A stretch of DNA of 64,000 nt, taken from the NCBI GenBank assembly GCA_028873965.1, contig JAPPMU010000024.1, positions 231,154 to 295,153 of the forward strand, read 5' to 3'. Positions 1,145 through 52,159 of this stretch are shown here, piece by piece; position 1 is the first letter of the stretch; each line of letters begins with the position of its first letter. A model generated the notes under the pieces. It was not told the origin of the DNA. It did not search any database and saw only the letters and a list, made by a program, of their open reading frames with translations. Source of the DNA: Chloroflexota bacterium. GTDB lineage: Bacteria; Chloroflexota; Dehalococcoidia; Lucifugimonadales; UBA3495. The position numbers were made by a program, and so were the translations under genes.

Positions 1145-1438
1145 TTGAAACAGGTCGTGGAGGCGTACTTCACCGACCCGCGGCTGATGCATGGCTCGGG
1201 CAGTGCCATCGATGAGCGTTTACTGTACGTGCTGCTGGCCAACCTGCTGAATGCGGTGGGCGGCGCGCTGAGGCCCAAGGTGTTCTGCGTGCAGGACTTG
1301 GCCAACCAGGGCGCCGGTCACCCCGACTTCGGCCTGTACACCATCCGGCAGGCGCAGAAGGGCAAGGTAAAGATGGTACAGAAGCCTGAGCTCGGGGCTA
1401 TCGAGGTGAGGCTTGTGGATGGCCGCGTTTGGCGGTAA
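1145..1438 (+). pseudogene. orphan N-terminal fragment resembling the N-terminus of large SAM-dependent DNA methyltransferase / type IIG R-M enzymes
   Basis: 97-aa ORF containing ERLLYVLLANLLNAVGGALRPKVFCVQDLANQGAGHPDFGLYT...ELGAIEVR. This pattern is recalled from that enzyme family. The ORF ends abruptly at the cas3 start region and no methylase domain follows. Confidence 0.3.
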
Positions 1439-1472
1439 GGGCGCAGAAACTCATTGCCTGAGGTTTCGTAAA

Positions 1473-4115
1473 GTGCACAGACCATACACGACCCGGTTCT
1501 GGGGCAAATCGGATCGCAGCGCACCGGAGCGCATCCATCTATTGGAGCACCACCTGGCGGACGTGGGGGCGTGCTTCGAGGCGCTGGTGCAGCAGCCATT
1601 GATCCGACGCCGGCTGGCCCACACCGCAGGTTGGAACGACATTGACGACATCACGGCGGCGCGGCTTTGCGTGTTCGCCGCGCTGCATGATGTCGGCAAG
1701 GTGAACATTGGGTTCCAGGCCCAGATTTGGCGACCGGATGAATGGTCAGCAGGTCAGCGGCCTCCGGGCCGGGCCGGTCACACTCTGGATTTGACGCCGG
1801 TGTTGAACGGGGACGACCGCGCAACCTCGTCGTGGTTCTACGACGCCCTGGGCTGGTGGTGGGACGCCACCGAAATGTGGGACGACTGCGGGGGCGAAAC
1901 GGTGTGCGGCCTGCTGGTGGCCACGCTGTCGCATCATGGCACGCCGCTGCAGTTGGACAGCGGGCGCGCCGAGCATCCGCAGCTGTGGCGGCGCTACGGC
2001 GAGCTGGACCCACAGGAGCAGGTGTACCGCATCGGTCGGCTGGTCCGGGAGTGGTTCCCGGAGGCGTTCAACGAAGGTGGTCGTCCGCTGCCGTCTGCGC
2101 CGCAGTTCCAGCATCATTTCCTGGGGCTGTGCAACCTGGCGGACTGGATCGGATCCAACGAGCTGTGGTTCGACTACGTTGGCGAACCCCGAGACGGTTA
2201 CATCGACGCCTCCCGAAGCATCGCGGGGCAGGCCGTCAAAAGGGTTGGGCTGGATATATCGGAACAGCGGACGACCGTGGCGCGCTCCCGGGTTCCCGAT
2301 CTGACGGGCCTGTTCCCGCACATCGCACAGCCCAACGCCATCCAGCGGGCGGCCCACGATGCACCCATCGGCGAGCGGTTGGTCATCATCGAATCGGAGA
2401 CCGGCTCGGGCAAGACGGAGGCCGCGCTGTGGCGTTTCGCAAAGCTGTACGAGGCCGGCCTGGTGGATGGCCTGTACTTCGCGCTACCCACCCGGGCAGC
2501 GGCCAAGCAGATCTTCGACCGGGTGAATGCTTTCGTCGGAAACATGTTCCCGCCCGAAGCTCGGCCGGAGCCCGTGCTGGCGGTGCCCGGCTACATCCGA
2601 TCCGGAGATGCCCAGGGGCAGCGGCTCCAGGACTATGAGGTGTGGTGGGATGATCATGCCGTCGACGGACGACGCTGGGTGGCCGAGAGCCCCAAGCGGT
2701 TCCTCGCCGCGCAGATTGCCGTGGGCACGGTGGACCAGGCGATGCTGGGGTCGCTGACGGTGAAGAACGCTCACATGCGGGCGTCGAGCCTGGCGCGCAA
2801 CCTGCTGGTGGTGGACGAGGTTCACGCCTCAGATGCCTACATGAGCGAGGTTCTGGCCGCCGTGCTGGACGCTCACCTGGGCGCCGGCGGTTACGCGCTG
2901 CTCATGTCGGCGACGCTGGGGGCGATCGCCAGGCATCGCTGGCTGGGGCGGCCCGCCGACGCCGTTCCGACGTTGGCCGACGCCATCGATGCCCCCTATC
3001 CTGCGGTAAGTACGGCGTCGGCCATGATCGACGCCGGTGAGAATGACCGGCGCAAGGATGTGAGCATCGGCGCGGAGCCGGAGATGCGAGACTTCAACGC
3101 GGTGGCGGCTCGGGCGCTGGAAGCGGCGCAGTCCGGCGCCAAGGTGCTGGTGGTGCGCAACACGGTGGACTACGCCATCCGCACGCTGGAGGCTTTGCTG
3201 GAGACGGCTGGGCCGGAGGACGCTGACCTGCTGTTCTCCGTGGATTGCATCCCCACGCTGCACCACGGGCGTTTCGCTGCCGTTGACCGTGAGCTGCTGG
3301 ACGCGGAGATCGAAAGAAGATTGGGGCGGGGACGGCCCGACGGCGGGCTGGTGGTGGTGGGCACTCAGACGCTGGAGCAGTCCCTGGACATCGACGCCGA
3401 CCTGCTCATCACCGACCTTTGCCCCGCCGACGTGCTGCTCCAGCGCATCGGGCGACTGCATCGCCATCGACAAAACGACGCCACGCGGCCCGGCGGCTTT
3501 GACCAAGCCCGGTGCGTCGTGTTGACGCCGGGAGACGATCTGTCGTCATTGCTGTCTGCCGGCCAGAACGCCAACGGTCTGGGTCCCCACGGCGGGGTGT
3601 ACCGCAACCTGCACGTCCTGGAGGCGACCCGCCGTCTGATTGTCGAACATCCCCGGTGGCGCATACCGGACATGAACCGCGAACTGGTGGAGCGCGCCAC
3701 GCATACGCAAGCCCTGGACGCCATCACTGCGGAACTGGGCGACGCCTGGAAGGACCATGCCATCAGCACCGAGGGCGGCCACATCGCCGACGTGCAGACG
3801 GCGCGAGGGCACACCATCCGGCGGGACCGGTCTTTCTTCACGGACAACCGCGAGGTCTGCTTTCCCAGCGACGAGGAGCGCATCCGCACCCGCCTGGGCG
3901 ACGACCGGGTGGATGTAACCTTCGACCCGCCGCCGGCCAGCCCTTTCGACCGGTCGCTCAGTATTGACCGCCTGGCGATGCCGGCGTGGTGGCTGCCGGG
4001 GGTTGAGCCCTCGGAGCCGGTGCAACCGACGCCATCCGACACCGACGAGTTCGAGTTCCGCGTGGGAGACCGCCGCTTCCGCTACGACCGGCTGGGCTTG
4101 CGGCGCTTGCAATAA
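1473..4115 (+). CDS. cas3: type I-E Cas3 HD nuclease/helicase
   Basis: ORF 1413..4115. It has an FWGKS N-terminal motif, HD motifs HHLADV and LHDVGK, Walker A ESETGSGKTEAAL and a DEVH box. GTG 1473 is preferred as start because GAGG lies 9 nt upstream; ATG 1419 is also possible. Confidence 0.95.
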   Translation: MHRPYTTRFWGKSDRSAPERIHLLEHHLADVGACFEALVQQPLIRRRLAHTAGWNDIDDITAARLCVFAALHDVGKVNIGFQAQIWRPDEWSAGQRPPGRAGHTLDLTPVLNGDDRATSSWFYDALGWWWDATEMWDDCGGETVCGLLVATLSHHGTPLQLDSGRAEHPQLWRRYGELDPQEQVYRIGRLVREWFPEAFNEGGRPLPSAPQFQHHFLGLCNLADWIGSNELWFDYVGEPRDGYIDASRSIAGQAVKRVGLDISEQRTTVARSRVPDLTGLFPHIAQPNAIQRAAHDAPIGERLVIIESETGSGKTEAALWRFAKLYEAGLVDGLYFALPTRAAAKQIFDRVNAFVGNMFPPEARPEPVLAVPGYIRSGDAQGQRLQDYEVWWDDHAVDGRRWVAESPKRFLAAQIAVGTVDQAMLGSLTVKNAHMRASSLARNLLVVDEVHASDAYMSEVLAAVLDAHLGAGGYALLMSATLGAIARHRWLGRPADAVPTLADAIDAPYPAVSTASAMIDAGENDRRKDVSIGAEPEMRDFNAVAARALEAAQSGAKVLVVRNTVDYAIRTLEALLETAGPEDADLLFSVDCIPTLHHGRFAAVDRELLDAEIERRLGRGRPDGGLVVVGTQTLEQSLDIDADLLITDLCPADVLLQRIGRLHRHRQNDATRPGGFDQARCVVLTPGDDLSSLLSAGQNANGLGPHGGVYRNLHVLEATRRLIVEHPRWRIPDMNRELVERATHTQALDAITAELGDAWKDHAISTEGGHIADVQTARGHTIRRDRSFFTDNREVCFPSDEERIRTRLGDDRVDVTFDPPPASPFDRSLSIDRLAMPAWWLPGVEPSEPVQPTPSDTDEFEFRVGDRRFRYDRLGLRRLQ

Positions 4116-4750: not shown

Positions 4751-6331
4751 ATGCTCAACATTCTAACCGAACCACTGATTGGCATGACCACGGCAGAAGG
4801 CACCCGACCCGTATCCCTGCCGGAGGTGTACGCAGTGCTGATGGCCGACGAGGTGGAGGCGTTTCCGGCGCTGCGTCCACACCAGCGCCACGCTTGGCAC
4901 GCTTCTCTGGTGCAGTTGGCAGCTATGGCAATGCACCGGGCTGGGGTCGCTGAGCCGCCGGCGGATGAGGTGGAATGGGCGGGGCTGATACGGGGGTTGA
5001 CGGCGGATTGGACGGATGATGAGCCGTGGCAGTTGGTGGTTGATGACATTACCAAGCCAGCGTTTATGCAGCCGCCGGCTCGCTCCGCCGACAAACTGGC
5101 GGAGTACAAAAGCCGGGTGGAAACTGCTGATGAGCTGGACATGCTCGTTACATCCAAGAACCACGATTTGAAAGCGACTGTCGGGGCCCAGTCTGGCGTA
5201 GATGACTGGATATACGCGCTGATTTCATTACAGACGATGGAGGGTTTCGGCGGGGCCGGCAACTACGGCATCTCCCGTATGAATGGTGGTTTGGGCAGCC
5301 GTCCAGCGTTTTCCATGGCCCCAACCGGCAGGGTCGGAGCTCACGTCAAGCGGGACATTCGAGCGTTGCTAGACAACTATCCGACAACCGGCGGCGGTCA
5401 TCGCCTGTTGTGGCTGCTGTCGTGGGACGGAACCGCAAGTGAAAGACTGCTACCGAACCAACTGGCACCGCACTACATAGAAGTTTGCCGGCGCGTCCGG
5501 CTGCGCTCCGATGCTGACGGCCGGTTGTACGCTGTCCGAACCAGCACCAAAGCGGCTCGTATTGAGGGTAAAGATCTCAAAGGCCGGACCGGTGATCCCT
5601 GGACGCCGCATAACCCGAACCGGGATGGGTTACCGCTGACTATATCGCGTGGCGGCTTCAACTACAAACGGGTAACGGAATACCTTTTTGACTGGCAAAA
5701 TCCCGACCTGCTGAAAGCTACGCCTGACGAACAACGCTCGAATGACCCTGATGAAACGATGCAGTTGGTAGCTCGCGCCATGGTGCGGGGTCAAGGCAAG
5801 ACTGAAGGCTACTACGAGCGCGTCATCCCCATTCGGAGCAAGAAAGCGTTGCGCGGAATGACGCGGCGCCCAGGCAGTGACAGCACGGAAGACTTGGGTA
5901 ACTTGGCCCAAGAACGCATTAAAGAAGTTGGCATCGTGCAAGGTATCTTGCGCCATGCCATCGCAACGTTCCTGGCGCGCGGTGAATCCAGAGAGACCAG
6001 CCCGGAGCAGCGGGCTTTGGCCAATCCATGGGCAAATCGTTTGGACGAAATCGTTGACGCCGATTTCTTTGATGCCTTGCAAGTTGAGTTTGAACACAAC
6101 GACCGCGCCGAGCGCGAGCGTGTCCGAAATGAGTGGCTGATGAACGGCAGGGATGGCGTCGTTGACCACGCTCGCAACATCCTGGATGAGGCGGTGGATT
6201 CTCTGCCTTGCCCAGCCGTTCACCGTTATCGAGCCCGCGAAAACGCGGAAGGGCTGTTTGAAGGACGAATACGCAGAAGCGGAGGGTTGCCGTTTCTGTT
6301 TGACAGAACGAATTTTGAGGTGACGAAATGA
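4751..6331 (+). CDS. cse1: type I-E Cascade large subunit Cse1/Cas8e
   Basis: Starts MLNILTEPLIGMTTAEGTRPVSLPEVYAVLMADEVEAFPALRPHQRHAWHASLVQL, a typical CasA N-terminus. Length is 526 aa. It occupies the position after cas3 and its stop overlaps the cse2 ATG. Confidence 0.93.
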   Translation: MLNILTEPLIGMTTAEGTRPVSLPEVYAVLMADEVEAFPALRPHQRHAWHASLVQLAAMAMHRAGVAEPPADEVEWAGLIRGLTADWTDDEPWQLVVDDITKPAFMQPPARSADKLAEYKSRVETADELDMLVTSKNHDLKATVGAQSGVDDWIYALISLQTMEGFGGAGNYGISRMNGGLGSRPAFSMAPTGRVGAHVKRDIRALLDNYPTTGGGHRLLWLLSWDGTASERLLPNQLAPHYIEVCRRVRLRSDADGRLYAVRTSTKAARIEGKDLKGRTGDPWTPHNPNRDGLPLTISRGGFNYKRVTEYLFDWQNPDLLKATPDEQRSNDPDETMQLVARAMVRGQGKTEGYYERVIPIRSKKALRGMTRRPGSDSTEDLGNLAQERIKEVGIVQGILRHAIATFLARGESRETSPEQRALANPWANRLDEIVDADFFDALQVEFEHNDRAERERVRNEWLMNGRDGVVDHARNILDEAVDSLPCPAVHRYRARENAEGLFEGRIRRSGGLPFLFDRTNFEVTK

Positions 6332-7194
6332 CTACCCCAACGCAGACTGACCCAGAATTGGCTAGGCGTAGCTATGACTATCTTCACCCACAGTACCGCG
6401 CCGCTCGCACAGAAGCTCTTGCCCGTTCGAAGGGACAGTGCCAGTTCTGTGGTGAACGACCCGCCGCTGAAGCCCACCACTGGGCGACGGACTATCCTTC
6501 TGAAGAGGAGATGACAGCTGATGATCTGACCGGCCTGTGCCTCTTCTGCCATACGATGGCAACAACCATTCGGAGATTTCGTGGCGACCCTTGGGAACTA
6601 TTGGAAAGGTTCAGAGAACAACAGAGGAAGTCGCCGAATGATTCCCAGCCTTACCAGTTTCAAGGCGGAGTCGCCGTGCCTATTGCGAGGGATATCGCAA
6701 TTCTTTCCACCCATAAGAGGGGAGATTTTGCCGGACTGCGCCGTATGGACCCGAACGAACCTGACACGGCAGCCTTCTGGCGGTTGATGGCCAGCGAAGG
6801 GTTGCTGGGCAACCCCGACGCAGAACGCAAGTGGGCGCTCATTATGTGCGGCATTGCCCTGATGACACGCACTGCCGCCGATGACAACCCTTTCAACCGT
6901 TCCGCTCACAACGGGAGTATGCCGGTGGGCCGGGCGCTCTACGAAAGCGGATACAGCGAAACACGCTTCAACCGCCTGCTCACCGCGCGGGACGATATGC
7001 TTCGCGTCCTGCTGACCCGGATGTTCCGGATGCTGGCCGCCGAGCAGGCGACCTTCGACTGGCGGGAGATGGCTGCGTTCATCCTGAACGATGGCTTCAA
7101 CGACGAACGCGCCGAAGAGGGCCGTCGCCGCCTGGCCCGAGCCTACTACCGGGCCGAGCGGCGCGGTTCCCAACAATCAGAAACCCAGCAATGA
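6328..7194 (+). CDS. cse2: Cse2/Cas11 small subunit with N-terminal HNH nuclease domain
   Basis: ATGA overlap with the cse1 stop. Residues 20-85 form an HNH motif: YRAARTEALARSKGQCQFCGERPAAEAHHW...DDLTGLCLFCH. Residues about 110-288 are Cse2-like (GLRRMDPNEPDTAAFWRLM..., ...RLLTARDDMLRVLLTRMFRML..., ARAYYRAE). At 288 aa it is longer than the roughly 160-200 aa usual for Cse2. Confidence 0.88.
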   Translation: MTTPTQTDPELARRSYDYLHPQYRAARTEALARSKGQCQFCGERPAAEAHHWATDYPSEEEMTADDLTGLCLFCHTMATTIRRFRGDPWELLERFREQQRKSPNDSQPYQFQGGVAVPIARDIAILSTHKRGDFAGLRRMDPNEPDTAAFWRLMASEGLLGNPDAERKWALIMCGIALMTRTAADDNPFNRSAHNGSMPVGRALYESGYSETRFNRLLTARDDMLRVLLTRMFRMLAAEQATFDWREMAAFILNDGFNDERAEEGRRRLARAYYRAERRGSQQSETQQ

Positions 7195-8387
7195 CCAACG
7201 GGAGAATGACGATGACCACCCCCAGATTTCTGCAAATTCACACCCTGCACTCGTACCCGGCCGCCCTGCTGAACCGGGACGACTCGGGCCTGGCCAAGCG
7301 GATGCCTTTCGGCGGGGCTACCCGCACCCGCATCTCATCCCAGTGCCTCAAGCGGCATTGGCGGGTGGCCCAGGACGAGTTCGCGCTGCGCGGCATCGCC
7401 GGAACTACCGCGGCCCTGCGCTCACGGAACGTCGTCGAGCGCAAGGTAATACAGCCGTTGCGCAAAGCCAATGAAATCGACAAGGAGATCCTTGACGCGG
7501 TGGAAAACGCATTCAACATCGGCGTGTACGGCAGCAGCGGCACCACCGAATCGGGACGACAACCGCTGCTCCTGGGCCTGCCCGAAGTGGAGTATCTGCA
7601 ACAGAAAGCCTCCGCCATTTGTACGGAACACCCCGACGACGCCAAAGCCGCCGGCGATGCCGCCACGTTGCTGTTCAGCGCGCGGCGCGGCGAGGGCAAT
7701 AACTTCGCCGCCTTCCGCGACGCCGCGCGGTTGCCCGGCGGTCTGGAAGGCGCGCTGTTCGGGCGGATGGTTACGTCGGACCCGGGGGCCAACATCGAGG
7801 CGGCCATCCACGTGGCCCACGCCTTCACCGTTCACGCCGAGGAGAGCGAGAGCGACTATTTCTCCGTGGTCGATGATCTCCAGCGGGAGGACGAGGACGC
7901 CGGCGCCGCCCACATCGGCGACATGGAGCTGACGGCGGCGTTGGCCTACGGCTATGTCGTCGTGGACGTGCCGGGGCTGGTGTCCAACCTGGAGGGCTGC
8001 GACGCCGGCGAGTGGGACAGTGCCGACCGAGAGCTGGCCGGCAAGGTGGTGGAGCACCTGATCCATCTGATTGCCACCGTGTCGCCAGGGGCCAAACTTG
8101 GGTCCACTGCTCCCTATAGTTATGCCGACTTGATGGTCATTGAGGCCGGCAGCCGCCAGCCGCGCAGCCTGGCCAACGCCTATCGCCGACCGGTTCCGGC
8201 GCGCGTCGATGCCGCCACCGACGCGCTGGCCGCCTGCCTGGGCAAGCTGGATGACGCCTATGGCGGAAAGGAAATCCGCCGCGTGATGTCGGTGGAGGAC
8301 TGCGACATCCCCCGGGCGGAGCGCCTCTGCCTGGACGATCTGGCGACGTGGGCCGCAGAAGCCGTGAGGAACGGTGAAGCGAAATGA
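7191..8387 (+). CDS. cas7: type I-E Cascade backbone subunit Cas7e (Cse4/CasC)
   Basis: Contains RFLQIHTLHSYPAALLNRDDSGLAKRMPFGGATRTRISSQCLKRHWR, the canonical CasC N-terminus. ATGA overlap with cse2. Confidence 0.95.
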   Translation: MTNGRMTMTTPRFLQIHTLHSYPAALLNRDDSGLAKRMPFGGATRTRISSQCLKRHWRVAQDEFALRGIAGTTAALRSRNVVERKVIQPLRKANEIDKEILDAVENAFNIGVYGSSGTTESGRQPLLLGLPEVEYLQQKASAICTEHPDDAKAAGDAATLLFSARRGEGNNFAAFRDAARLPGGLEGALFGRMVTSDPGANIEAAIHVAHAFTVHAEESESDYFSVVDDLQREDEDAGAAHIGDMELTAALAYGYVVVDVPGLVSNLEGCDAGEWDSADRELAGKVVEHLIHLIATVSPGAKLGSTAPYSYADLMVIEAGSRQPRSLANAYRRPVPARVDAATDALAACLGKLDDAYGGKEIRRVMSVEDCDIPRAERLCLDDLATWAAEAVRNGEAK

Positions 8388-9136
8388 CCATGCGGCACCT
8401 GATCATCAACCTGGAAGCGCCGCTGATGGCATTCGGCGGCGAGACGATTGATAATCTCGGCGTGATCAGGCCGTTCCCGGCCGCGTCGATGATTACGGGC
8501 CTGTTCGCGAACGCCCTGGGCTGGCGGCGCATCGAACGGCAGCGACACCAGGAATTGCAGGACCGGATGGTCTTCGCCGCCCGCATCGACCGGGAGCCGG
8601 CCGGCGGCGTCCGCATGACAGACTTTCAGACGGCCCAACTGGCCGCCAACGACCGGGGCTGGACCACCCGGGGCGCTCCGGAAGGCCGCGCCGGAGGGGC
8701 CAACACCTACCTGGCTCCGCACCTGCGCTACCGCGACTACTACGCTGACATGCGCGTCACGGTGGCGCTCCGGCTGGAGCCGGCGGCCGACGCCCCGACC
8801 CTGGATGATCTGGCCAACGCTCTACAGCAACCCGCCCGGCCCCTGTTCATCGGACGGAAACCATGCCTGCCATCGGAGCCCTTGTACGGGGACTTCGCCC
8901 AGGGGGACACGGCGCTGGCCGCGCTGCTCAGCGTGGCCCCGGCCGATAATGGACGCGGCGCTCTCTGCCGTCTCCAGTGGCCCCGGGGCGAGGGCGTGGC
9001 CGACGTCGACGCCAGCCGGACGCGCCTGATCACCGACCAGCGCAACTGGAGTTCGTCGGCTCTGCACGGCGGCGGCCGCTGGGTCTGCGAGGGGAGCGTT
9101 GACCGCAGCCGTTGGACGGAGGTGGCAGCATCATGA
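8384..9136 (+). CDS. cas5: type I-E Cas5e (CasD)
   Basis: Starts MTMRHLIINLEAPLMAFGGETIDNLGVIRPFPAASMITGLFANALGWRR, a typical Cas5e N-terminus. Overlaps the cas7 stop. Confidence 0.95.
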   Translation: MTMRHLIINLEAPLMAFGGETIDNLGVIRPFPAASMITGLFANALGWRRIERQRHQELQDRMVFAARIDREPAGGVRMTDFQTAQLAANDRGWTTRGAPEGRAGGANTYLAPHLRYRDYYADMRVTVALRLEPAADAPTLDDLANALQQPARPLFIGRKPCLPSEPLYGDFAQGDTALAALLSVAPADNGRGALCRLQWPRGEGVADVDASRTRLITDQRNWSSSALHGGGRWVCEGSVDRSRWTEVAAS

Positions 9137-9867
9137 CGGAACCGTTGCAGATGATCCGTGCTGAAATCAACGTGCGGGACTTCCAGCGCTGGATGGGTAT
9201 GCGCCGGCTGCAGGACCCGGACCATGCCATGCACTGCTTCTTGGTTGAGTCGTTCGGCAGCGAACTTGCGCCCAAGCCCTTCCGCGCCATCTTCCCGCGG
9301 GGTGGGTCCCACGGGTGCTTGTATGGCTACGGGACGGCGGATGCAGAAACGTTGCGCGAAGCCGCCGGCCTGTACGCCGACCCGTTGCAGTCGCGCATCA
9401 TCCCGCCTCACGGCATCGACAGCAAACCCATGCCGGCCGAGTGGACCGCCGGCAAACGGCTGGGCTTCGAGGTTCGCGTGAGGCCCGTTGTCCGGCGCAC
9501 GGACAAGGCGGAATGCCGGCCGGGCCGCGAGTGGGACGCCTTCCAGCTGGAGGCCATCCAGCATCCCAAGGGCGAGATGCCCCGCAGCCGCGAGGAAGTT
9601 TATACCGACTGGCTGCGCCGGCAATTTCAGATTAGAGGAGGCGCAGCGCTGGAGTCGGCGACACTGGTGTCCTTCCAGCGCACCCGCGCGGTCCGCCGTC
9701 TGCGCGGCGGATACAGCGAGGGACCCGACGCTCTGATGCGCGGCGTGCTGGAAATCACCGACGGTACTGCCTTCGGCAAACTGCTTGCCGGCGGCGTGGG
9801 ACGCCACCGGGCCTACGGGTACGGAATGCTCCTGCTGCGCCCCGCCGGCCGCCAGCCCGCATCCTGA
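9133..9867 (+). CDS. cas6e: type I-E Cas6e (Cse3/CasE) crRNA endoribonuclease
   Basis: ATG 9133 overlaps the cas5 TGA. The C-terminal glycine-rich motif GVLEITDGTAFGKLLAGGVGRHRAYGYGMLLLRP parallels E. coli CasE GIGPAKSMGCGLLSLAP. Gene order supports the call. Confidence 0.9.
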   Translation: MTEPLQMIRAEINVRDFQRWMGMRRLQDPDHAMHCFLVESFGSELAPKPFRAIFPRGGSHGCLYGYGTADAETLREAAGLYADPLQSRIIPPHGIDSKPMPAEWTAGKRLGFEVRVRPVVRRTDKAECRPGREWDAFQLEAIQHPKGEMPRSREEVYTDWLRRQFQIRGGAALESATLVSFQRTRAVRRLRGGYSEGPDALMRGVLEITDGTAFGKLLAGGVGRHRAYGYGMLLLRPAGRQPAS

Positions 9868-9935: not shown

Positions 9936-10913
9936 ATGTTGAGAGGAAGACTGGGGCTGGAGACGGCCCGCATCCCCCACGCCGACCGTCACGGTCTGCT
10001 CTGGCTGTCTCGAGGCGCGTTGACGGTGCGGGACGGCACGTTGCGCTTTGAGCGCCATGCGAGCCCCGACGCCGACAGTTCAATGGATGCCGGCGAGTAC
10101 GGCATACCCTTCCAGAGCCTGTCCATGATCCTGCTGGGTCCGGGCTCCACGGTGAGCCACGACGCCCTGCGGCTGATGGCGCGCCACGGCACCGGGCTGG
10201 TGGCCGTGGGCGAGGACGGCGTGCGGTGCTACACCGCGCCGCCCCTGATGCCCGACACGTCGGACATTGCCCGGCGCCAGATGCGTGCGTGGGTGGACGC
10301 CCAGGGCAGCCGCATCACCATCGCGCGCAAGATGTACGCATTGCGCCTGGGCGAGGTGCTGCCCCACACCGACATCACGGTGCTGCGGGGCATCGAGGGC
10401 GCGCGGATGAAGCGCACCTATCAGAACCTGTCGCGCCAGTATGGGATAACCTGGCGGCGACGTCGCTACGACCGGACCAATCCCACGGCGGCGGACATAC
10501 CCAACCAGGCCATTAACCACGCGTCGGTGGCGGTCACGGCGGCGGCGGTGATCGCGGTTACGTCCCTGGGGGCCATCCCACAGTTGGGGTTCATCCACGA
10601 GCACAGCGGCGAGGCTTTCGCCCTGGATATCGCCGACCTGTTCCGCGATACGGTGCTTCTGCCAGCGGCGTTCCAGGCGGCGGCCGAGGTGGAGAAAAAC
10701 CCCCGGCTGGATGTGGAACGGCACACCCGGCGCACCACGGGCGATATGCTGCGGAAAGAGCGCGTCATCCCGAAGATGATCGACCGCATCAGGACCCTGT
10801 TCCAGGACGTGACTCCGCTGGACGCCGGGCCGGCCGTGGACGCCACGCTGATGGACGGCTGGCCGGATGAGGATGCCCCGGATCAGGATTCATTGGAGGA
10901 GGAGGTCCAATGA
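9936..10913 (+). CDS. cas1: type I-E Cas1 integrase
   Basis: 325 aa. Collinear by eye with E. coli Cas1 (LRGIEGARMKRTYQNLSRQYGITWRRRRYD, GFIHEHSGEAFALDIADLFR). Confidence 0.95.
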   Translation: MLRGRLGLETARIPHADRHGLLWLSRGALTVRDGTLRFERHASPDADSSMDAGEYGIPFQSLSMILLGPGSTVSHDALRLMARHGTGLVAVGEDGVRCYTAPPLMPDTSDIARRQMRAWVDAQGSRITIARKMYALRLGEVLPHTDITVLRGIEGARMKRTYQNLSRQYGITWRRRRYDRTNPTAADIPNQAINHASVAVTAAAVIAVTSLGAIPQLGFIHEHSGEAFALDIADLFRDTVLLPAAFQAAAEVEKNPRLDVERHTRRTTGDMLRKERVIPKMIDRIRTLFQDVTPLDAGPAVDATLMDGWPDEDAPDQDSLEEEVQ

Positions 10914-11218
10914 CGGTAGTGGTAACCGTGAACGTGGAGGGCCGGTACCGGGGGTTCCTGGCCTCGGTGATGCTGGAAATCGCGCCGGGAGTGTACACGT
11001 CGCCGGAGATGACCAGCGGCATCAGGGATCGGATCTGGGACGTGCTGGTCCGATGGCACGGAGAACTGGGCAACGGATCGATCGTGATGACTTGGCGGGA
11101 CCCCGCGGCGCCGGGCCAGCAGCAGATCCGGAGCCTGGGCGATCCGCCCAAGGAGATCGTGGATGCCGACGGCGTGTATTTGGTAAGATACGGTGAGGCC
11201 CGCACTCTTGGCGAATGA
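10910..11218 (+). CDS. cas2: type I-E Cas2
   Basis: 102 aa starting MTVVVTVNVEGRYRGFLASVMLEIAPGVYTSPEMTSGIRDRIWD, which resembles E. coli Cas2. Overlaps the cas1 stop. Confidence 0.95.
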   Translation: MTVVVTVNVEGRYRGFLASVMLEIAPGVYTSPEMTSGIRDRIWDVLVRWHGELGNGSIVMTWRDPAAPGQQQIRSLGDPPKEIVDADGVYLVRYGEARTLGE

Positions 11219-11247: not shown

Positions 11248-14200
11248 GGTTCCCCCGCACGCGCGGGGATAGACCCACTTTGCGTTGGAGCAAAACACGT
11301 TGCTCGACGGTTCCCCCGCACGCGCGGGGATAGACCGCAGTTGCGGTAGATGTTGCGCTTGACCAGGTTGGTTCCCCCGCACGCGCGGGGATAGACCCGC
11401 CGCCGCCGGAGTACCAGCCGCAGTCAGGGCGGTTCCCCCGCACGCGCGGGGATAGACCCATCAGCCGGTCAAGAGAGACGCCACTGTTGCCGGTTCCCCC
11501 GCACGCGCGGGGATAGACCGGCTACCCGGGCGCAACGGGATTGGCTGATGCGGGTTCCCCCGCACGCGCGGGGATAGACCTTCCAGCGGCGCATCATCCG
11601 GTTCCAAACCCACGGTTCCCCCGCACGCGCGGGGATAGACCGTCGCGACTTTGGAGCGGGCATTCCTTCACGACGGTTCCCCCGCACGCGCGGGGATAGA
11701 CCCTCGGTTCCCGCAGCCCGGTGACGACTGGTTCAGGTTCCCCCGCACGCGCGGGGATAGACCTTGTGCCATTTTTCGTAATGAGGGTGAGCGATTGGTT
11801 CCCCCGCACGCGCGGGGATAGACCCGATGACGACGATGACTATTCGGGCATCTACTCGGTTCCCCCGCACGCGCGGGGATAGACCCCATCCACAGCGTTT
11901 GCCGCAGTTCGCCGGATGGGTTCCCCCGCACGCGCGGGGATAGACCCTGCCCGATTTCGTTGCGGGTCCGCTCCGGGGTGGTTCCCCCGCACGCGCGGGG
12001 ATAGACCGGTGTTGGCGGGCGCCTGTCCAAACGGGCGTGAGGTTCCCCCGCACGCGCGGGGATAGACCCCTGCGCAGCACGGTGGAAACGCAGCGGCTGC
12101 GGGTTCCCCCGCACGCGCGGGGATAGACCCGATGCCAAGTCGCCGCCGGGATTGCGCGGATAGGTTCCCCCGCACGCGCGGGGATAGACCTCTTGGCGGG
12201 CATGGTGAGATTGTAGCGGCACAGGTTCCCCCGCACGCGCGGGGATAGACCCGGTGAATACATACCAGAGATGCTATGAGCGCAGGTTCCCCCGCACGCG
12301 CGGGGATAGACCACGTGTCGGGGGGCAGTTCTATGTGCGGGGGTGGGTTCCCCCGCACGCGCGGGGATAGACCCTTCGTGCCATTTAGCGAGTAGACCCT
12401 GACCTCGGTTCCCCCGCACGCGCGGGGATAGACCTGGTCATACGGACGATGCGGGAATCGCCGAGGCGGTTCCCCCGCACGCGCGGGGATAGACCGATGT
12501 TGAGCAGCTTCCACCCGGCGCCGCCGGCGGTTCCCCCGCACGCGCGGGGATAGACCGATGACCGGGCCGCGCATCCCCGGCGGGAGTTTGGTTCCCCCGC
12601 ACGCGCGGGGATAGACCCTGCGCATTGTCCGCATTGTGGCCGGCACGCTGGGTTCCCCCGCACGCGCGGGGATAGACCGTCCCTAGCAGTTTGAGGCTCC
12701 AAAAAGAACTCGGTTCCCCCGCACGCGCGGGGATAGACCGGCGTGGTTTCCCGGATTGTCGCGCCCCCGGGGGGTTCCCCCGCACGCGCGGGGATAGACC
12801 CTCTCCGACACGCCCACCGCCCACGAGGAAGTCGGTTCCCCCGCACGCGCGGGGATAGACCCCGCATCAGATCCCAGGGTCTGACACGCAAGGGGGTTCC
12901 CCCGCACGCGCGGGGATAGACCGTGGCGCACCAGCCCTTGCCCCATGAGCGTTTGGGTTCCCCCGCACGCGCGGGGATAGACCCTGCGCGTACTGTGCTC
13001 ACAATTGAGCCTGATTGGTTCCCCCGCACGCGCGGGGATAGACCGTACAGGGTATCAGATAGCACAATACGCGACGCGGTTCCCCCGCACGCGCGGGGAT
13101 AGACCCGATGATGACAGTGGATACAACGGTACGGCAAAGGTTCCCCCGCACGCGCGGGGATAGACCTCACTTTCGGGCGGTATGAAAAGGGTTACGTGGG
13201 GTTCCCCCGCACGCGCGGGGATAGACCTTTGCCTTGCCAGCCTTTCCGCTATCAGGTCGGGGTTCCCCCGCACGCGCGGGGATAGACCTTCCATATCCGC
13301 TCCCGATGTTGATGTTGGTGTGGTTCCCCCGCACGCGCGGGGATAGACCGCCCTTGTACGTTCCTGTCTCTACCCTCATCATGGTTCCCCCGCACGCGCG
13401 GGGATAGACCCCATCTATAGCCCCCTGTACGCGCCTTCACCGAGGTTCCCCCGCACGCGCGGGGATAGACCCCGCATCGTAACCGATTTCGGCGGCATGA
13501 CCCCGGTTCCCCCGCACGCGCGGGGATAGACCCCAACGTGGTCATCCTCGCCCTGGCCGGCGGAGGGTTCCCCCGCACGCGCGGGGATAGACCCGCTTCA
13601 CCTACATGGGAGACGACGACAATGAAGGTTCCCCCGCACGCGCGGGGATAGACCGTCCACCGGGGCCGCGTACAGCATGGTAAGACAGGTTCCCCCGCAC
13701 GCGCGGGGATAGACCTCACTATGATTGGGCCGATGGGCACTGGGATAGGGTTCCCCCGCACGCGCGGGGATAGACCTACGCAGGATATACTCGTTGCGTT
13801 GAGGGACTGGGTTCCCCCGCACGCGCGGGGATAGACCGTCATTCCCACGGCCACGTCGCCCTCCGCCTTCGGTTCCCCCGCACGCGCGGGGATAGACCCT
13901 CCTCGCTGGGCCGGCGGTCCGAGAGGGCGAAGGTTCCCCCGCACGCGCGGGGATAGACCGCGGCAAGGGGGAAAGTGGCGCATCATTGCTTCGGTTCCCC
14001 CGCACGCGCGGGGATAGACCTCAACCCGCGTCGTCCGGCCCACCGTGCTCCGCGGTTCCCCCGCACGCGCGGGGATAGACCGGCCCTATCGGATGGGTCA
14101 AGTTGGGCGTCGCCGGTTCCCCCGCACGCGCGGGGATAGACCCCACTCGCCCCGCGTGACGCAGTGGACGTGGGAGGTTCCCCCGCACGCGCGGGGATAG

Positions 14201-17200
14201 ACCCATAAAGAATATTATTTCACCCAACCGTGCCCGGGTTCCCCCGCACGCGCGGGGATAGACCCCTGGCCGCCGTAACCTACGAGAGCCTGGGCGAGGT
14301 TCCCCCGCACGCGCGGGGATAGACCGTACCAGCGGGGGCGGGCCTCGGTGTTGGGCGGGGTTCCCCCGCACGCGCGGGGATAGACCCACCCCCGCACATA
14401 GAACTGCCCCCCGACACGTGGTTCCCCCGCACGCGCGGGGATAGACCCTGTTGGTGGGCGCCGGGGACGCGAGATCGCCAGGTTCCCCCGCACGCGCGGG
14501 GATAGACCGGATATGAGCAGGTTCATTATCGACATGGTTTCGGTTCCCCCGCACGCGCGGGGATAGACCGAGGCGGCCACGTCGTCCAGGTTGGTCCAAC
14601 GGGGTTCCCCCGCACGCGCGGGGATAGACCCTGTCCAATTTTCGGATGCAGCAGGGTTCAGGGGGTTCCCCCGCACGCGCGGGGATAGACCCATCAGTCA
14701 TCTGGACACGTCGTTTCGGTCTGGGGTTCCCCCGCACGCGCGGGGATAGACCGTCCTGAACCCAGGCGCGCCGCAGGGTCCGCAGGGTTCCCCCGCACGC
14801 GCGGGGATAGACCCTCTTCTATAAGAGGTTCGAGCGCCTCTTCATAGGTTCCCCCGCACGCGCGGGGATAGACCTCATATTCTGATTGATAGGGGCGGCC
14901 TCTTTACGGTTCCCCCGCACGCGCGGGGATAGACCCTATTACAAGCAGTCCCTTGCCAGCATTGGCGAGGTTCCCCCGCACGCGCGGGGATAGACCCGTC
15001 CAAAAAAATAACACCTAGGTGTTACAGACGGTTCCCCCGCACGCGCGGGGATAGACCTTTGTCGGCAAAGACTTTATAGAGGAAAGACTGGGTTCCCCCG
15101 CACGCGCGGGGATAGACCGATCAGGCCATTGCCCAATACTGGTCGGGGAACGGTTCCCCCGCACGCGCGGGGATAGACCGGCGGTTCGGGCAGCAGCCCC
15201 CCGTCCGATGTTGGTTCCCCCGCACGCGCGGGGATAGACCCCACCAACCAGCGGGCCGTCCGCGCGTCGCTGCGGTTCCCCCGCACGCGCGGGGATAGAC
15301 CCGACCCAGACGTTGCGGGGACGTCCATAGGCCCGGTTCCCCCGCACGCGCGGGGATAGACCGGAAGCCAGGTTGTACGGATGGGCCATCGTGGAGGTTC
15401 CCCCGCACGCGCGGGGATAGACCCCGAGGCCGAGGCCTATCTCAGGAGGTGACCAAGGTTCCCCCGCACGCGCGGGGATAGACCCTTCAGCAAAGCCGGC
15501 TTTGGCTTCATCACCCGGGTTCCCCCGCACGCGCGGGGATAGACCGGACCGGAGCGGTGAGCCGGAGATGCGCTACGCGGTTCCCCCGCACGCGCGGGGA
15601 TAGACCCCCCGCGACCAGCTGGACTACGAGAACAAGGAGGGTTCCCCCGCACGCGCGGGGATAGACCCCGCTCCATCGCCTCGGCCGCGGCGCCCGTGCC
15701 GGTTCCCCCGCACGCGCGGGGATAGACCCGGTGAATACATACCAGAGATGCTATGAGCGCAGGTTCCCCCGCACGCGCGGGGATAGACCCGCCGTTGCCC
15801 ATAATGTTCCAGGCTTGCCGTGGGTTCCCCCGCACGCGCGGGGATAGACCTTGTGTGGCTGTTCAACCCGGACGGCGCGGCTTGGTTCCCCCGCACGCGC
15901 GGGGATAGACCGTTGCACGATGATACCGCAAAGTGGGTGGACGTGGTTCCCCCGCACGCGCGGGGATAGACCCGCGGTTGACGAATTCCTGCGCCAACCC
16001 CCGTTGGTTCCCCCGCACGCGCGGGGATAGACCGCCGGCCCTCCAACCTGGGCTCGACCATACCCGGGTTCCCCCGCACGCGCGGGGATAGACCCCAATA
16101 TGACCGGATGGGACGCGACAACAGCATGGTTCCCCCGCACGCGCGGGGATAGACCCGCCAACGCCAACGGCGCGGTGGGTATAGCGCTGGTTCCCCCGCA
16201 CGCGCGGGGATAGACCGTACATGGCGTGGGTGGAGTCGACGATCGACGAGGTTCCCCCGCACGCGCGGGGATAGACCGGTGCCAAACACCAGCAAGTGCG
16301 CGGCGAAGGCGGTTCCCCCGCACGCGCGGGGATAGACCCCACGTTCACGATGGTGCGGTTATCCTGCAAGAGGTTCCCCCGCACGCGCGGGGATAGACCC
16401 TGCCCGATCTCATTGCGGGTCCGCTCCGGGGTGGTTCCCCCGCACGCGCGGGGATAGACCCGGTGTGAGGCCCTGCGAGTGTCCGTAATGGATGGTTCCC
16501 CCGCACGCGCGGGGATAGACCCATCTCATAGGCGTTGTGCGGACCCTCCGGCGAGGTTCCCCCGCACGCGCGGGGATAGACCCCAATAACCGCGCAGTAC
16601 CCAGCTCTCCGCGTAGGTTCCCCCGCACGCGCGGGGATAGACCCTCGGCCGCGGTGATTCCATCTTCCCGCCAGGCGGTTCCCCCGCACGCGCGGGGATA
16701 GACCTTGGACGCCGTCCTCGACGTACGCCTGCTCGGCGGTTCCCCCGCACGCGCGGGGATAGACCCCTGATCTTGAACTCCGGCGCCGGAGGCGAGCGGG
16801 TTCCCCCGCACGCGCGGGGATAGACCGCATATGAGCGTTGCCTACCCACATTGCCAGCCGGTTCCCCCGCACGCGCGGGGATAGACCCGAAACGGCCAAT
16901 GTATCTGAGCGTACCCGACTGGTTCCCCCGCACGCGCGGGGATAGACCCGCCATGATTTACGGAATGCCCTATCAGCCGCCGGTTCCCCCGCACGCGCGG
17001 GGATAGACCGATGGTACAAATATTCAACTATGAGGTGAATATGGTTCCCCCGCACGCGCGGGGATAGACCCTGAGACGGGCAAGGTCAGCGCGGCGCAAG
17101 CCGGGTTCCCCCGCACGCGCGGGGATAGACCCGTCTAGCGGAGATAGGTTGACACCGGGTATCTGGTTCCCCCGCACGCGCGGGGATAGACCCTGAAGGG

Positions 17201-17802
17201 AGTACGCAATCCGACGGATGCTACTGGTTCCCCCGCACGCGCGGGGATAGACCCCTGTATCATTATCATATCCTCCGTAAAGCCCAGGTTCCCCCGCACG
17301 CGCGGGGATAGACCTTTCTTGAGCCCGGCGACTCCCTGAAGGGGCGGGGTTCCCCCGCACGCGCGGGGATAGACCGGCACAATCCGCGACGCCGTTTTCG
17401 GTGAAGGCGGTTCCCCCGCACGCGCGGGGATAGACCCATCCACTGGGGGGCAAAAACTGGGTGAAAGTAGGTTCCCCCGCACGCGCGGGGATAGACCCTT
17501 AGCCACTCATGTGGCATTCACTTACAGGGCGGTTCCCCCGCACGCGCGGGGATAGACCCCTTCGGCTCATTTTCACCTTGCCGTCGCTGCCGGTTCCCCC
17601 GCACGCGCGGGGATAGACCTTCGTGGACAATGGCCCGCTGCCCTAGAGGGGTGGTTCCCCCGCACGCGCGGGGATAGACGTTTTGCACAGTCAGCGCAAG
17701 ATCGGCGGTTGGTGGTTCCCCCGCACGCGCGGGGATAGACCGCATCGGAGTTACCATATCTCCGAACTCTATTCGGTTCCCCCGCACGCGCGGGGATAGA
17801 CC
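11248..17802 (+). CRISPR. type I-E CRISPR array, block 1: 108 repeats of GGTTCCCCCGCACGCGCGGGGATAGACC with 33-nt spacers
   Basis: First repeat at 11248 and last at 17775, a distance of 6527 = 107 x 61. Repeat orientation matches E. coli GTTCCCCGCGCCAGCGGGGATAAACC, so the array is transcribed on the plus strand from the cas2 side. The repeat at 17653 ends in G instead of C. Confidence 0.97.
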
Positions 17803-17811
17803 CCTTGCCCC

Positions 17812-18039
17812 ATGACTACGCTTTTTGTTCAAGAATGGGATAGGCTAGACCATGTGGCCGCGGCTGAATACGGCCAGGTTAGCGACGCTGCGCTCCGCAC
17901 TCTGATTTGGAGCAATCCCGCGCTGCCATTCGGGATCAATTTCCCGCCGTCAACGATCCTGAACGTTCCCGCCGATCCGATCTCGGTTCGGTATTCAGCG
18001 GACGTTGACCCGACGTCGAAGGCTGCGCTTGACGGGTGA
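17812..18039 (+). CDS. phage tail protein X-like (P2 gpX-like) ORF
   Basis: 75 aa. LFVQEWDRLDHVAAAEYGQVSDAALRTLIWSNPALPFGINFPPSTILNVPAD fits the recalled tail-X pattern (GDTLD..YG......ANP.L.....LP.G..I.LP). Confidence 0.45.
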   Translation: MTTLFVQEWDRLDHVAAAEYGQVSDAALRTLIWSNPALPFGINFPPSTILNVPADPISVRYSADVDPTSKAALDG

Positions 18040-18044
18040 ACGAA

Positions 18045-18161
18045 ATGGATTGCAAATGCAAATGCGGTTGCCGATTGCCTCTATACCCGTGGGATTATGC
18101 GTCGGGTATCTGCGAAAACTGCGCCGAACGGTGTCAGAATTCGTTGGGCAATGGGCGATAG
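18045..18161 (+). CDS. 38-aa Cys-rich ORF
   Basis: Own translation: MDCKCKCGCRLPLYPWDYASGICENCAERCQNSLGNGR. Too short for the supplied track. Confidence 0.2.
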   Translation: MDCKCKCGCRLPLYPWDYASGICENCAERCQNSLGNGR

Positions 18162-18265
18162 GTTCTTTCCAGGCCGCCGCCGGCCCCTTGCGGCTCAACG
18201 GCGCACGAGTCGGCAAGTGCGGTGATGCCAAGTATTATCAAATGCGATACGGTGAATGATCCGAT

Positions 18266-18491
18266 ATGCCGCGTATCACGCAAAAGGAAATCGCGGGCGT
18301 GGTTGGGGTTTCGCAGGCGACCGTTTCCGGTTGGCAGTTGGGGCGCAACCCGTCATGGATCGACGTTGCTGCAAAGGTAGTCAGCACGGATCGCCTGTAC
18401 GGTGAACCCGCCATGCGTGACCTGATCCTGCGGGTCGTCGCGGAGCGGGATCCGAACGCAACCCCGCTTGGCAGTCGCGGCCGTTGGGAGT
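18266..18491 (+). pseudogene. XRE/Cro-like HTH gene truncated at the junction with the CRISPR repeat
   Basis: MPRITQKEIAGVVGVSQATVSGWQLGRNP is a classic HTH. The ORF has no stop of its own and reads into repeat and spacer sequence (track ORF 18266..18577). Confidence 0.5.
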
Positions 18492-20456
18492 GGTTCCCCC
18501 GCACGCGCGGGGATAGAGCGTTACATTACATGAATACGTTAATGTCAGCTTCGGTTCCCCCGCACGCGCGGGGATAGAGCCCGTATGGTCGGCGACAGTG
18601 ATGCCGCCGGGGTGGTTCCCCCGCACGCGCGGGGATAGACCCCAAGCCGTTATGGAGTACCCCCCATATACCATGGTTCCCCCGCACGCGCGGGGATAGA
18701 CCTCAGTTTGTGGGCAAAGACTTTATAGAGGAAAGGGTTCCCCCGCACGCGCGGGGATAGACCGTCATGCCCTCGGTTTGCCCCTACAATGACAACGGTT
18801 CCCCCGCACGCGCGGGGATAGACCTTTCAGTACAGGGATTACTAAATCGTCAATTTGGGTTCCCCCGCACGCGCGGGGATAGACCGATTTCGCTCGCCGC
18901 AGTGATGCGCAGGCGTCCGGTTCCCCCGCACGCGCGGGGATAGACCCGGCGAGGGCCGTGTTGTACACCCAGATCGCCGGGTTCCCCCGCACGCGCGGGG
19001 ATAGACCCGGCGAGGGCCGTGTTGTACACCCAGATCGCCGGGTTCCCCCGCACGCGCGGGGATAGACCCTGGGACGACATGGTGTACGTGACCCAGTACT
19101 AGGTTCCCCCGCACGCGCGGGGATAGACCCGTGAGGTCGATGGTGTCGGCCTCAAACATCTGGGTTCCCCCGCACGCGCGGGGATAGACCCCCGGCGGGG
19201 AGCTAGGCCCGATGTGGATTGCGGGTTCCCCCGCACGCGCGGGGATAGACCCCGGACACCGATGGAGCGGATGTTCGGCAGATCGGTTCCCCCGCACGCG
19301 CGGGGATAGACCCGTCCAGGTCCACGACGACGTTGCGGCGACCGAGGTTCCCCCGCACGCGCGGGGATAGACCCTATCGCATTGATCCCGCGCCGTATCC
19401 GGTACTGGTTCCCCCGCACGCGCGGGGATAGACCGGTTCAGATGACCCGGGATCTGAAAGCCGGCCGGGTTCCCCCGCACGCGCGGGGATAGACCCAACC
19501 GGGGCGCCATCCCCCTGGAGGGATTTGCGGTTCCCCCGCACGCGCGGGGATAGACCGCTCTGCCTGACCGCGAACGCGCCCCGCGTGGCGGTTCCCCCGC
19601 ACGCGCGGGGATAGACCCGAGGTTGACAACCGGCCCTACGTCCGGCGCCGGGTTCCCCCGCACGCGCGGGGATAGACCCATCACGGCGCTCGCGGGGATC
19701 ACCACCACTCTGGTTCCCCCGCACGCGCGGGGATAGACCCCCACGATCTCGCGGTCGGTCAGCGGCGGCACCGGTTCCCCCGCACGCGCGGGGATAGACC
19801 CGGTGGTGGCGTGGGGGTGGGCGTCATGGTCGGGGTTCCCCCGCACGCGCGGGGATAGACCCCCGATCCCACAGGTCAGGCGAGCCCTCATCGCGGTTCC
19901 CCCGCACGCGCGGGGATAGACCCCTGACGATCCACGAAGGGGATGCCCGCAACCTGGTTCCCCCGCACGCGCGGGGATAGACCCAGGACAGGCAATAGCC
20001 CTTCCAGTTGCCGCCGGGTTCCCCCGCACGCGCGGGGATAGACCCGACTGCGCCGAGTGCGGCGCGCTGGCCGGTTCGGTTCCCCCGCACGCGCGGGGAT
20101 AGACCCCCCTGGCAGCCGCGGCGCAACGCCAGGGACGGGGTTCCCCCGCACGCGCGGGGATAGACCGCACACCGGCTACCAGTCCATGTTCATTGGCGAG
20201 GTTCCCCCGCACACGCGGGGATAGACCTGAACATCAGCGCAAACACCGACGCCGCGGCCAGGTTCCCCCGCACACGCGGGGATAGACCCTCCTTTATTCA
20301 GCGGATCACGAGCACCGGCGAGGTTCCCCCGCACACGCGGGGATAGACCGGGACGGTCCAAAGCTTTCAAAATCGCAAAGGCGGTTCCCCCGCACACGCG
20401 GGGATAGACCGCGAAGCCCGGCGATATTCCAAATGCCGGTCGGGGTTCCCCCGCAC
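18492..20456 (+). CRISPR. type I-E CRISPR array, block 2: 32 full repeats plus a 13-nt truncated terminal repeat
   Basis: Repeats lie at 18492 + 61k for k = 0 to 31. The first two carry C27>G (GATAGAGC). The last four (20200, 20261, 20322, 20383) carry loop change G14>A. The final copy, GGTTCCCCCGCAC at 20444-20456, is cut off. Confidence 0.97.
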
Positions 20457-31504: not shown

Positions 31505-31520
31505 CCCGCGAGGTGACGCC

Positions 31521-51440: not shown

Positions 51441-51469
51441 GGCGGGCCTCCTTGGTTCGCGTGATACGG

Positions 51470-52147: not shown

Positions 52148-52159
52148 TTCACAGCCCCC

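Follow-up and report, generated by a model that had tools for sequence, protein, structure and literature searches.

An HNH nuclease domain fused to the Cas11e (Cse2) subunit in type I-E CRISPR-Cas loci that retain Cas3

Results and discussion

A cas11e gene with an N-terminal extension

Here we describe a CRISPR-Cas locus of type I-E (CRISPR, for short palindromic repeats that are clustered and regularly interspaced) in a 64,000-nucleotide stretch of DNA from a Chloroflexota bacterium (contig JAPPMU010000024.1; the whole stretch is referred to as the window), in which the gene of the small Cascade subunit Cas11e, or Cse2, also encodes an HNH domain. The HNH-cas11e (cse2) fusion gene spans positions 6328–7194 of the forward strand, is open over 288 uninterrupted codons, and lies between cas8e and cas7e, the usual place of Cas11e in an I-E operon. 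Three parts can be distinguished on that strand, i.e. the HNH domain (6370–6630, residues 15–101), a linker (6631–6672, residues 102–115) that holds a fusion-specific SQPYQF junction, and the Cas11e/Cse2 body (6673–7194, residues 116–288 plus the stop codon). The body is matched by PF09485 at residues 134–274 (52.9 bits, cut-off 24.6), by TIGR02548 at residues 130–276 (65.9 bits, cut-off 28.5) and by the PADLOC Cas11e model at residues 128–278 (E 1.3e-36), in agreement with an earlier note on this DNA, which had recognised Cse2 in the remainder of the protein from the letters alone. Foldseek matches the body to E. coli Cse2, and it is 74–79% identical to unfused Cse2 of Chloroflexota metagenome-assembled genomes (MAGs) and metagenomes. 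The unusual length noticed earlier is likewise real: 117 of the best 120 (of 765) Cse2 homologues measure 191–228 residues, and alignment with unfused Cse2 assigns about 94 extra N-terminal residues to the window protein. Examination of the 765 homologues together with cluster look-ups, following the survey of cse2 length and domain content proposed in that note, yielded six distinct full-length fusions (288–295 residues) and one 98-residue fragment from four sample accessions. In the three fusions that were aligned (the window, L001 and L002) the junction SQPYQF/L...AVPIARDI is common to all and absent from unfused Cse2.

The fusion ATG overlaps the cas8e stop codon (ATGA, 6328–6331), from which the earlier note had concluded that the extension is very likely translated. 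A Shine–Dalgarno-like GAGGTG is found 6 nt upstream of this ATG, orthologues likewise have a motif of this kind, and the start is coupled to cas8e in all three aligned loci. An identical 288-residue protein was called on independent contigs from an ENA assembly and a Logan run. Ratios of nonsynonymous to synonymous substitution rates (dN/dS) were calculated pairwise among the three orthologues according to Nei and Gojobori. The HNH core gave 0.14–0.15 at dS values of 0.66–1.1, a level that matches or lies below that of the Cse2 body (0.12–0.28), while the linker reached 0.17–0.59, with 0.45–0.59 for the window against L001 and L002. A ratio of about 0.15 over the HNH core implies that the domain is translated in this frame and strongly constrained.

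A GTG at codon 117 (6676–6678), preceded by a GGCGGAG/GGTGGA-like motif, is kept in the three orthologues. Its use as an internal start that co-produces an untagged Cas11 of about 172 residues is speculative, and its conservation may merely reflect constraint on the protein. The same codon bears on the proposal that the fusion is an artefact, either through misjoining of a separate HNH gene and cse2 by assembly or sequencing error or through an internal start that leaves the HNH domain unmade. Such an artefact is highly improbable. All sequences do come from metagenome assemblies, and initiation at the conserved GTG with its GGAG/GGTGGA-like motif could yield a Cse2 of about 172 residues; against this, six different full-length sequences, assembled independently, share the open frame, one of them (L062) on a contig of 3.87 Mb, the start codon is coupled to cas8e, the HNH codons are under strong purifying selection in this frame, and unfused relatives lack HNH remnants upstream of cse2. 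Moreover, initiation within the frame would yield a further product without abolishing the full-length one. Judged from these sequence features, this is a genuine and conserved fusion, made as a single protein.

All eight type I-E cas genes were identified in the window, on the forward strand and in the order cas3–cas8e–HNH-cas11–cas7–cas5–cas6e–cas1–cas2, followed by two CRISPR arrays. The 898-residue gene call of cas3 (1419–4115) is matched by PF18019, PF00270, PF22590, TIGR01587 and TIGR01596. The protein comprises HD, DEAD-box helicase and C-terminal domains, with helicase motifs I and II visible, so the description of an apparently intact Cas3 in the earlier note holds. The cas8e (cse1) gene (4751–6331) is a 526-residue gene call with PF09481; its long open reading frame matches TIGR02547 over residues 87–592 (E 5.8e-17) at 61.8 bits, below the curated cut-off of 70.05. 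Downstream of the fusion gene follow cas7e (casC, 7212–8387; 391-residue gene call; PF09344, E 5.5e-96; TIGR01869), cas5e (casD, 8384–9136; 250 residues without an HNH extension; PF09704, TIGR01868), cas6e (casE, 9133–9867; 244-residue gene call; PF08798, TIGR01907), cas1 (9936–10913; PF01867) and cas2 (10910–11218; PF09707). Array 1 (11248–17802) contains 108 copies of the repeat GGTTCCCCCGCACGCGCGGGGATAGACC with a period of 61, as found by pattern search and Tandem Repeats Finder, and array 2 (18492–20410), found by pattern search, contains 32 repeats, of which those at either end are variants; both arrays lie on the forward strand. The repeat is of the I-E type, and its 140 pattern matches (108 + 32) compare with 0 expected by chance. 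With HD and helicase domains in cas3 and a repeat array of the 29-nt type, the full type I-E set is present, and the 140 near-perfect repeats indicate an active CRISPR system.

The N-terminal domain is an HNH nuclease domain

The motif that the earlier note had quoted for residues 23–75 is present exactly as given there, with C38/C41, H50/H51, D66-L67, C71/C74 and H75 at nucleotides 6439–6552. Its reading as a complete HNH layout is borne out by PHROG profiles, hhalign, AlphaFold2 (AF2) and Foldseek in agreement, with PF01844 remaining sub-threshold. Several PHROG families of HNH endonucleases match the window domain (E 2.6e-6, 6.3e-6 and 1.4e-4, others weaker). When a profile built from the N-termini of the three fusions was searched against PDB sequences, the top match was the HNH domain of Cas5-HNH (8ZP9/8YB6, residues 276–339; E 8.5e-5), and hhalign aligned the family profile with the Cas5-HNH tail, taken from supplementary file 8 of PMC10910872, over 66 columns at 96.6% probability (E 6.9e-10). 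The best PF01844 E-value among the three fusion orthologues is 2.3e-4, and 41 of the 118 aligned members of the HNH family match PF01844 at E ≤ 0.01. NCBIfam returned nothing beyond a marginal HlpB match for the N-terminus of the window protein. Taken alone, the sub-threshold Pfam and marginal NCBIfam scores would come close to leaving residues 1–105 with no HNH profile match; the PHROG search supplies one there, at the E-value of 2.6e-6 given above. No match to VRR-NUC or PD-(D/E)xK nucleases was obtained for the window fusion in Pfam, NCBIfam or PHROGs.

Structure prediction of the 288-residue protein, proposed as a check in the earlier note, was confident for the HNH domain and weaker for the Cse2 body. 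The predicted local distance difference test score (pLDDT) is 94–98 over residues 21–100, which adopt an alpha-beta-beta-alpha-alpha layout (helix 21–33, strands 48–51 and 67–70, helices 72–83 and 88–101), and falls below 50 at residues 105–113 of the linker. Foldseek ranked Cas5-HNH chains first (probability 1.00, query-normalised template modelling scores of 0.52–0.58), followed by GVE2 HNH, McrA, IscB, T4 endonuclease VII and Cap5. The beta-beta-alpha-metal fold is recovered by AF2 and Foldseek alike. On these data, the N-terminal domain is an HNH nuclease domain.

H51 (6478–6480), D66 (6523–6525) and H75 (6550–6552) form the predicted catalytic triad, next to H50 (6475–6477), and the zinc-binding cysteines C38, C41, C71 and C74 are present in two CxxC knuckles. 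In every alignment made, H51/D66/H75 align with H310/D324/H333 of Cas5-HNH. There, H310 lies at the end of strand 1, D324 replaces the canonical Asn, and H333 completes the triad; cleavage is lost with the exchanges H310A and D324A and weakened with D324N (PMC11794572). None of the triad residues and zinc cysteines varies among the three aligned fusions. Across 118 family members, C38, C41, H50, H51, C71, C74 and H75 either do not vary or reach a conservation of at least 90%. D66 is less fixed, with DL in 92 of 136 motif-matched representatives. The HNH domain is apparently catalytically competent, and nuclease activity is predicted from the residues that it retains.

Distribution of the fusion and retention of Cas3

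The genomic context could be followed in five loci (the window, L001, L062, L063 and L064), each with a complete I-E operon in the same gene order beside large CRISPR arrays. A full-length cas3 (872–902 residues) is part of all five, and the HD motifs do not vary when the five Cas3 N-termini are aligned (LLEHHLADVG, ALHD(I/V)GKVN, GH, LSHHG and LADWIGS). As far as gene content and motifs tell, the coexistence with Cas3 is a stable property of the fusion variant and not a snapshot of decay. The closest unfused operons belong to Dehalococcoidia and Chloroflexota MAGs, in line with a host from that group.

Further searches added no members. Close patterns found no fusion among GTDB species-representative genomes, and fusion-specific peptide patterns gave no confirmed relative in JGI metagenomes. 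A word-index protein search with the N-terminal 121 residues was without a match, and the same index queried with the three-sequence profile yielded no additional fusion, only six HNH proteins of the standalone type; this index is too sparse for a census. An exhaustive HMMER search with the fusion N-terminal profile retrieved 711 cluster representatives, 232 of them at E ≤ 1e-10. No Cse2 domain occurs in the best 150 of the 711, a figure that gives no count of fusions, which sit under other cluster representatives. From the sequences at hand, the fusion appears to be rare, conserved and probably functional. The observation of the earlier note is confirmed, and its interpretation as a conserved HNH–Cse2 fusion in an I-E locus with cas3 is supported.

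In L062, a ribbon-helix-helix/ParE toxin–antitoxin pair and a PaREP1 gene (6672–7505 of that locus) lie between cas3 and cas8e. Upstream of cas3 in the second fusion group (L001, L063 and L064), a Uma2-family endonuclease gene and a divergent RNase T-like exonuclease gene are conserved.

Origin of the HNH module

The representatives of the HNH family retrieved by HMMER are mostly proteins of 85–250 residues with the domain at the N-terminus. The closest standalone relatives, 55–66% identical to the fusion domain, come from Dehalococcoidia/Chloroflexota and Vicinamibacterales MAGs, often with several genes per genome (at least six copies in one Vicinamibacterales assembly). In 46 of 52 loci, the standalone HNH gene is followed by a partly overlapping partner gene of about 200 residues, which matches PHROG 4652 only (without an assigned function there) and gave no Pfam or PADLOC match. 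Together the two genes look like a mobile two-gene cassette. Family patterns gave no confirmed relative of the HNH family in IMG/VR viral contigs. The standalone HNH gene (at about 6001–6500 of loci L008–L059, from GTDB genomes) carries a Ser/Pro-rich tail.

A neighbour-joining tree built from 202 family domains places the HNH domains of the three fusions in an exclusive clade; they are 71–83% identical to each other versus at most 66% to any standalone gene. The exclusive clade and the common junction peptide point to a single capture from a small standalone HNH family, as far as sequence comparison can tell. The Cse2 bodies of the fusions are not monophyletic and fall into two different subclades. 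The window body is 79% identical to unfused proteins and 63% identical to the other fusion group, whose bodies nest with unfused proteins at 84–86%. Two independent acquisitions of the HNH domain were considered for this pattern and rejected, as the fusion HNH domains are mutually closest and the junction peptide is common to them. Comparison of the window with L062 gives 97% identity for the HNH domain, 86% for the Cse2 body, 85% for Cas8e, 85% for Cas7 and 67% for Cas3, so that no other part of the operon is as well conserved as the HNH core (97% versus 64–91% for the other proteins). The unfused operons L004 and L005 have a Cas3 closer to that of the window (79–81%). This mosaicism suggests module shuffling among related I-E loci: given polyphyletic Cse2 bodies and mosaic operons, the HNH module would have moved by recombination or been lost repeatedly.

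The donor family raises the question whether the domain serves CRISPR interference as a nuclease at all. It may be a domesticated, non-catalytic zinc finger or DNA-binding module that could stabilise the R-loop or the displaced strand, or a recently captured selfish HNH without a CRISPR role. Cse2 normally adds DNA-binding surface; the donor genes, multicopy per genome and with a conserved partner gene, resemble a mobile cassette, and the Pfam HNH score is weak. We regard this explanation as unlikely in view of the complete H-D-H triad and four zinc cysteines in all three aligned fusions, and of the conservation of the same residues, D66 excepted, at 90% or more in the family. The dN/dS of about 0.15 and the position of the HNH core as the most conserved operon part between the window and L062 also speak for retained function, as does the persistence of the fusion across Cse2 bodies that are only 63% identical.

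Comparison with known nuclease-bearing Cascades

Described carriers of HNH domains are Cas5, in a variant of type I-E, and Cas8f, in a variant of type I-F, mostly without cas3 (PMC10910872, PMC12669027). The earlier note had described these variants correctly. Both Cascades cleave DNA via the HNH domain, and the Cas5-HNH complex additionally shows collateral cleavage of single-stranded DNA (PMC10910872). A 2025 classification lists the HNH variants as I-E2, I-F4 and IV-A2 and a PD-(D/E)xK-Cas11 variant as I-E3 (PMC12669027); the Cas5-HNH variant is named I-E2 in the main text of that paper and I-E3 in its supplementary table. Cas11-VRR (Cse2_VRR), in which a VRR-NUC domain of the PD-(D/E)xK type is joined to Cas11, was reported from seven I-E loci (PMC10910872 supplement), and some PD-(D/E)xK-Cas11 loci retain a Cas3 whose HD domain is apparently active, without a role being assigned there to the additional nuclease (PMC12669027).

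The Cas5-HNH Cascade (8YB6, 8YHA, 8ZLU, 8ZP7) shares the type I-E backbone with the fusion, and its HNH domain is the closest solved relative of the fusion HNH by sequence and fold. Both have the unusual H-D-H triad, the CxxC...CxxC site and a preceding D-Y...Y(K/R)..R.E motif, and in both there is a physical association between the HNH domain and Cas11. Within the Cas5-HNH complex, this association takes the form of a single Cas11 with the HNH domain filling the second Cas11 site, beside Cas6 (PMC11794572). The differences are equally clear. Here the HNH domain sits at the N-terminus of Cas11, not at the C-terminus of Cas5, and the window Cas5 is an ordinary protein of 250 residues; whereas Cas5-HNH systems are typically without Cas3, the fusion loci keep Cas3 with intact HD motifs in five of five cases. 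The two HNH domains are about 27% identical, a distance that argues for independent capture. The Cas11 residues that contact the HNH domain in the Cas5-HNH Cascade (W46, R49 and Q53) were also considered: no match was obtained when the PDB was searched with the Cse2 body by sequence or by profile, and hhalign of the body against the Cloacimonetes Cas11 was not significant (probability 0.4%).

With the PD-(D/E)xK-Cas11 variant of type I-E, the fusion shares a nuclease on the small subunit and the presence of Cas3, which there is kept in some loci. The nuclease itself belongs to the unrelated HNH/beta-beta-alpha-Me superfamily. The fusion combines one feature each of Cas5-HNH and PD-(D/E)xK-Cas11 and fails the defining features of both. 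Cas8f-HNH (I-F4) and CasDinG-HNH (IV-A2) are comparable as separate HNH co-options by class 1 effectors; they differ in subtype and carrier subunit, and I-F4 is without Cas3. Neither domain was among the sequence or fold matches of the fusion HNH. Phage-type standalone zinc-ribbon HNH proteins (GVE2 HNH, PDB 5H0M; PHROG 8048, 119, 589 and 144) have the fold and motif in common with it. Unlike the fusion, such standalone proteins are not joined to a Cas protein and do not adjoin CRISPR loci.

The earlier note knew of no Cas11–HNH fusion coexisting with Cas3. With regard to HNH this stands: HNH-Cas11 is absent from the 2023 survey (PMC10910872), the 2025 classification (PMC12669027) and their nuclease supplements, and a full-text literature search, the coverage of which excludes most subscription journals, found no paper on HNH-Cas11 or Cse2-HNH. 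The architecture as such has a precedent in type I-E, where a nuclease–Cas11 fusion that keeps Cas3 is already catalogued (PD-(D/E)xK/VRR-NUC), and only the nuclease family is new.

Possible role beside Cas3

We favour, as the probable reading, that Cas11e with a catalytically competent HNH domain on a flexible linker constitutes a second nuclease, tethered to Cascade and acting beside Cas3. The Cse2 body should lie on the belly of Cascade, along the duplex of CRISPR RNA (crRNA) and target and along the displaced strand. The fusion would join Cascade through this body, and upon formation of the crRNA R-loop the HNH domain would be held at the belly or on the side distal to the protospacer adjacent motif (PAM), where it might nick or cut the target DNA or the displaced strand locally; the linker of about 15 residues would give it limited reach. 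Cas3 would still be recruited via Cas8e on the PAM-proximal side for processive degradation, and the outcome would be an I-E variant with two nucleases. Cutting by HNH could act as a backup independent of Cas3 (e.g. against anti-CRISPRs that block Cas3), could speed up target destruction, or could provide extra DNA ends. The earlier note had imagined two nuclease heads per complex, from more than one Cse2 copy. By analogy with the Cas5-HNH Cascade, one HNH-Cas11 could supply both the Cse2 body and the HNH head, and we consider it at least as plausible that each complex has one copy, whose HNH domain takes up the second Cas11 site.

Several findings weigh against a second target nuclease. The PF01844 score of the window protein (13.6 bits, E 0.079) lies below the cut-off of 21.4. 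The second triad residue is Asp instead of the canonical Asn, a substitution also present in the active Cas5-HNH. In the full-length AF2 model the Cse2 body has pLDDT values of 37–74 at a predicted template modelling score (pTM) of 0.42, which gives no reliable interdomain geometry; as the model is confident for the HNH domain only, no conclusion on the geometry is drawn. The multicopy, mobile-looking character of the donor family makes a selfish origin likely, and residual selfish behaviour is possible. Finally, as an intact Cas3 is kept, HNH cleavage is not needed for interference, and the role of the domain could lie elsewhere.

One such role would be that of an active HNH nuclease in primed or naive adaptation, where it generates or trims DNA fragments for Cas1–Cas2, or of a target-activated collateral nuclease on single-stranded DNA in a response akin to abortive infection, with Cas3 as sole interference nuclease. 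We rate this as rather unlikely. It would agree with the Cas3 found intact in all five loci, which leaves interference without need of HNH, and the collateral activity of the Cas5-HNH Cascade on single-stranded DNA (PMC10910872) offers a precedent. The unusually long arrays, with 140 repeats, fit vigorous adaptation; array length, given here for the window, is no fusion-specific evidence. Nothing ties the HNH domain to Cas1–Cas2, and the characterised HNH-Cascades employ the domain for target cleavage, as proposed here for HNH-Cas11 within Cascade.

In evolutionary terms, the chances are about even that the fusion represents a fourth independent recruitment of HNH by class 1 effectors, the only one so far that involves the small subunit, and a natural dual-nuclease I-E system in which HNH-Cas11 cuts precisely while Cas3 is still recruited. 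If so, it may be an evolutionary intermediate between canonical I-E systems and the HNH-Cascades without Cas3, and ordinary I-E Cascades could be turned into programmable cutters in a simple manner through the small, modular Cas11. HNH-Cascades are recent finds that have made type I systems precise cutters usable for genome editing. The carriers so far were Cas5, Cas8f and CasDinG, mostly with HNH replacing Cas3, and HNH-Cas11 with intact Cas3 adds a new carrier subunit. It raises the testable question of what is gained from a second nuclease beside Cas3, i.e. backup against anti-CRISPRs, faster clearance, priming, or a step towards loss of Cas3, a question that applies equally to the PD-(D/E)xK-Cas11 variant. 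Cas11 is a small protein that lends itself to separate supply and occurs in more than one copy. If active, HNH-Cas11 might serve as a portable module to arm other I-E Cascades. The locus also documents the source of the nuclease, a multicopy standalone HNH family resident in the lineage.

Sequences around the CRISPR arrays

Array 1 starts only 30 nt past the cas2 stop codon, so that a conventional leader would find hardly any space there. Variants of the repeat are present at 17653, at 18492–18580 (with GAGC ends) and at 20200–20410 (CACACGC). Between the arrays lies a 690-bp non-repeat segment (17803–18491) with short open reading frames, one of which starts MPRITQKEIAGVVGVSQATVSGWQLG and is helix-turn-helix-like in appearance; the segment may have been inserted into the array or may serve array 2 as its leader. 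About 8 kb downstream of the arrays, a large serine recombinase with Resolvase, Recombinase and Zn-ribbon domains is encoded at 28197–29801, in a region with long open reading frames without a Pfam match (24244–25779, 30076–31524, 49731–51464 and 52055–54301). The recombinase could mark an integrated element.

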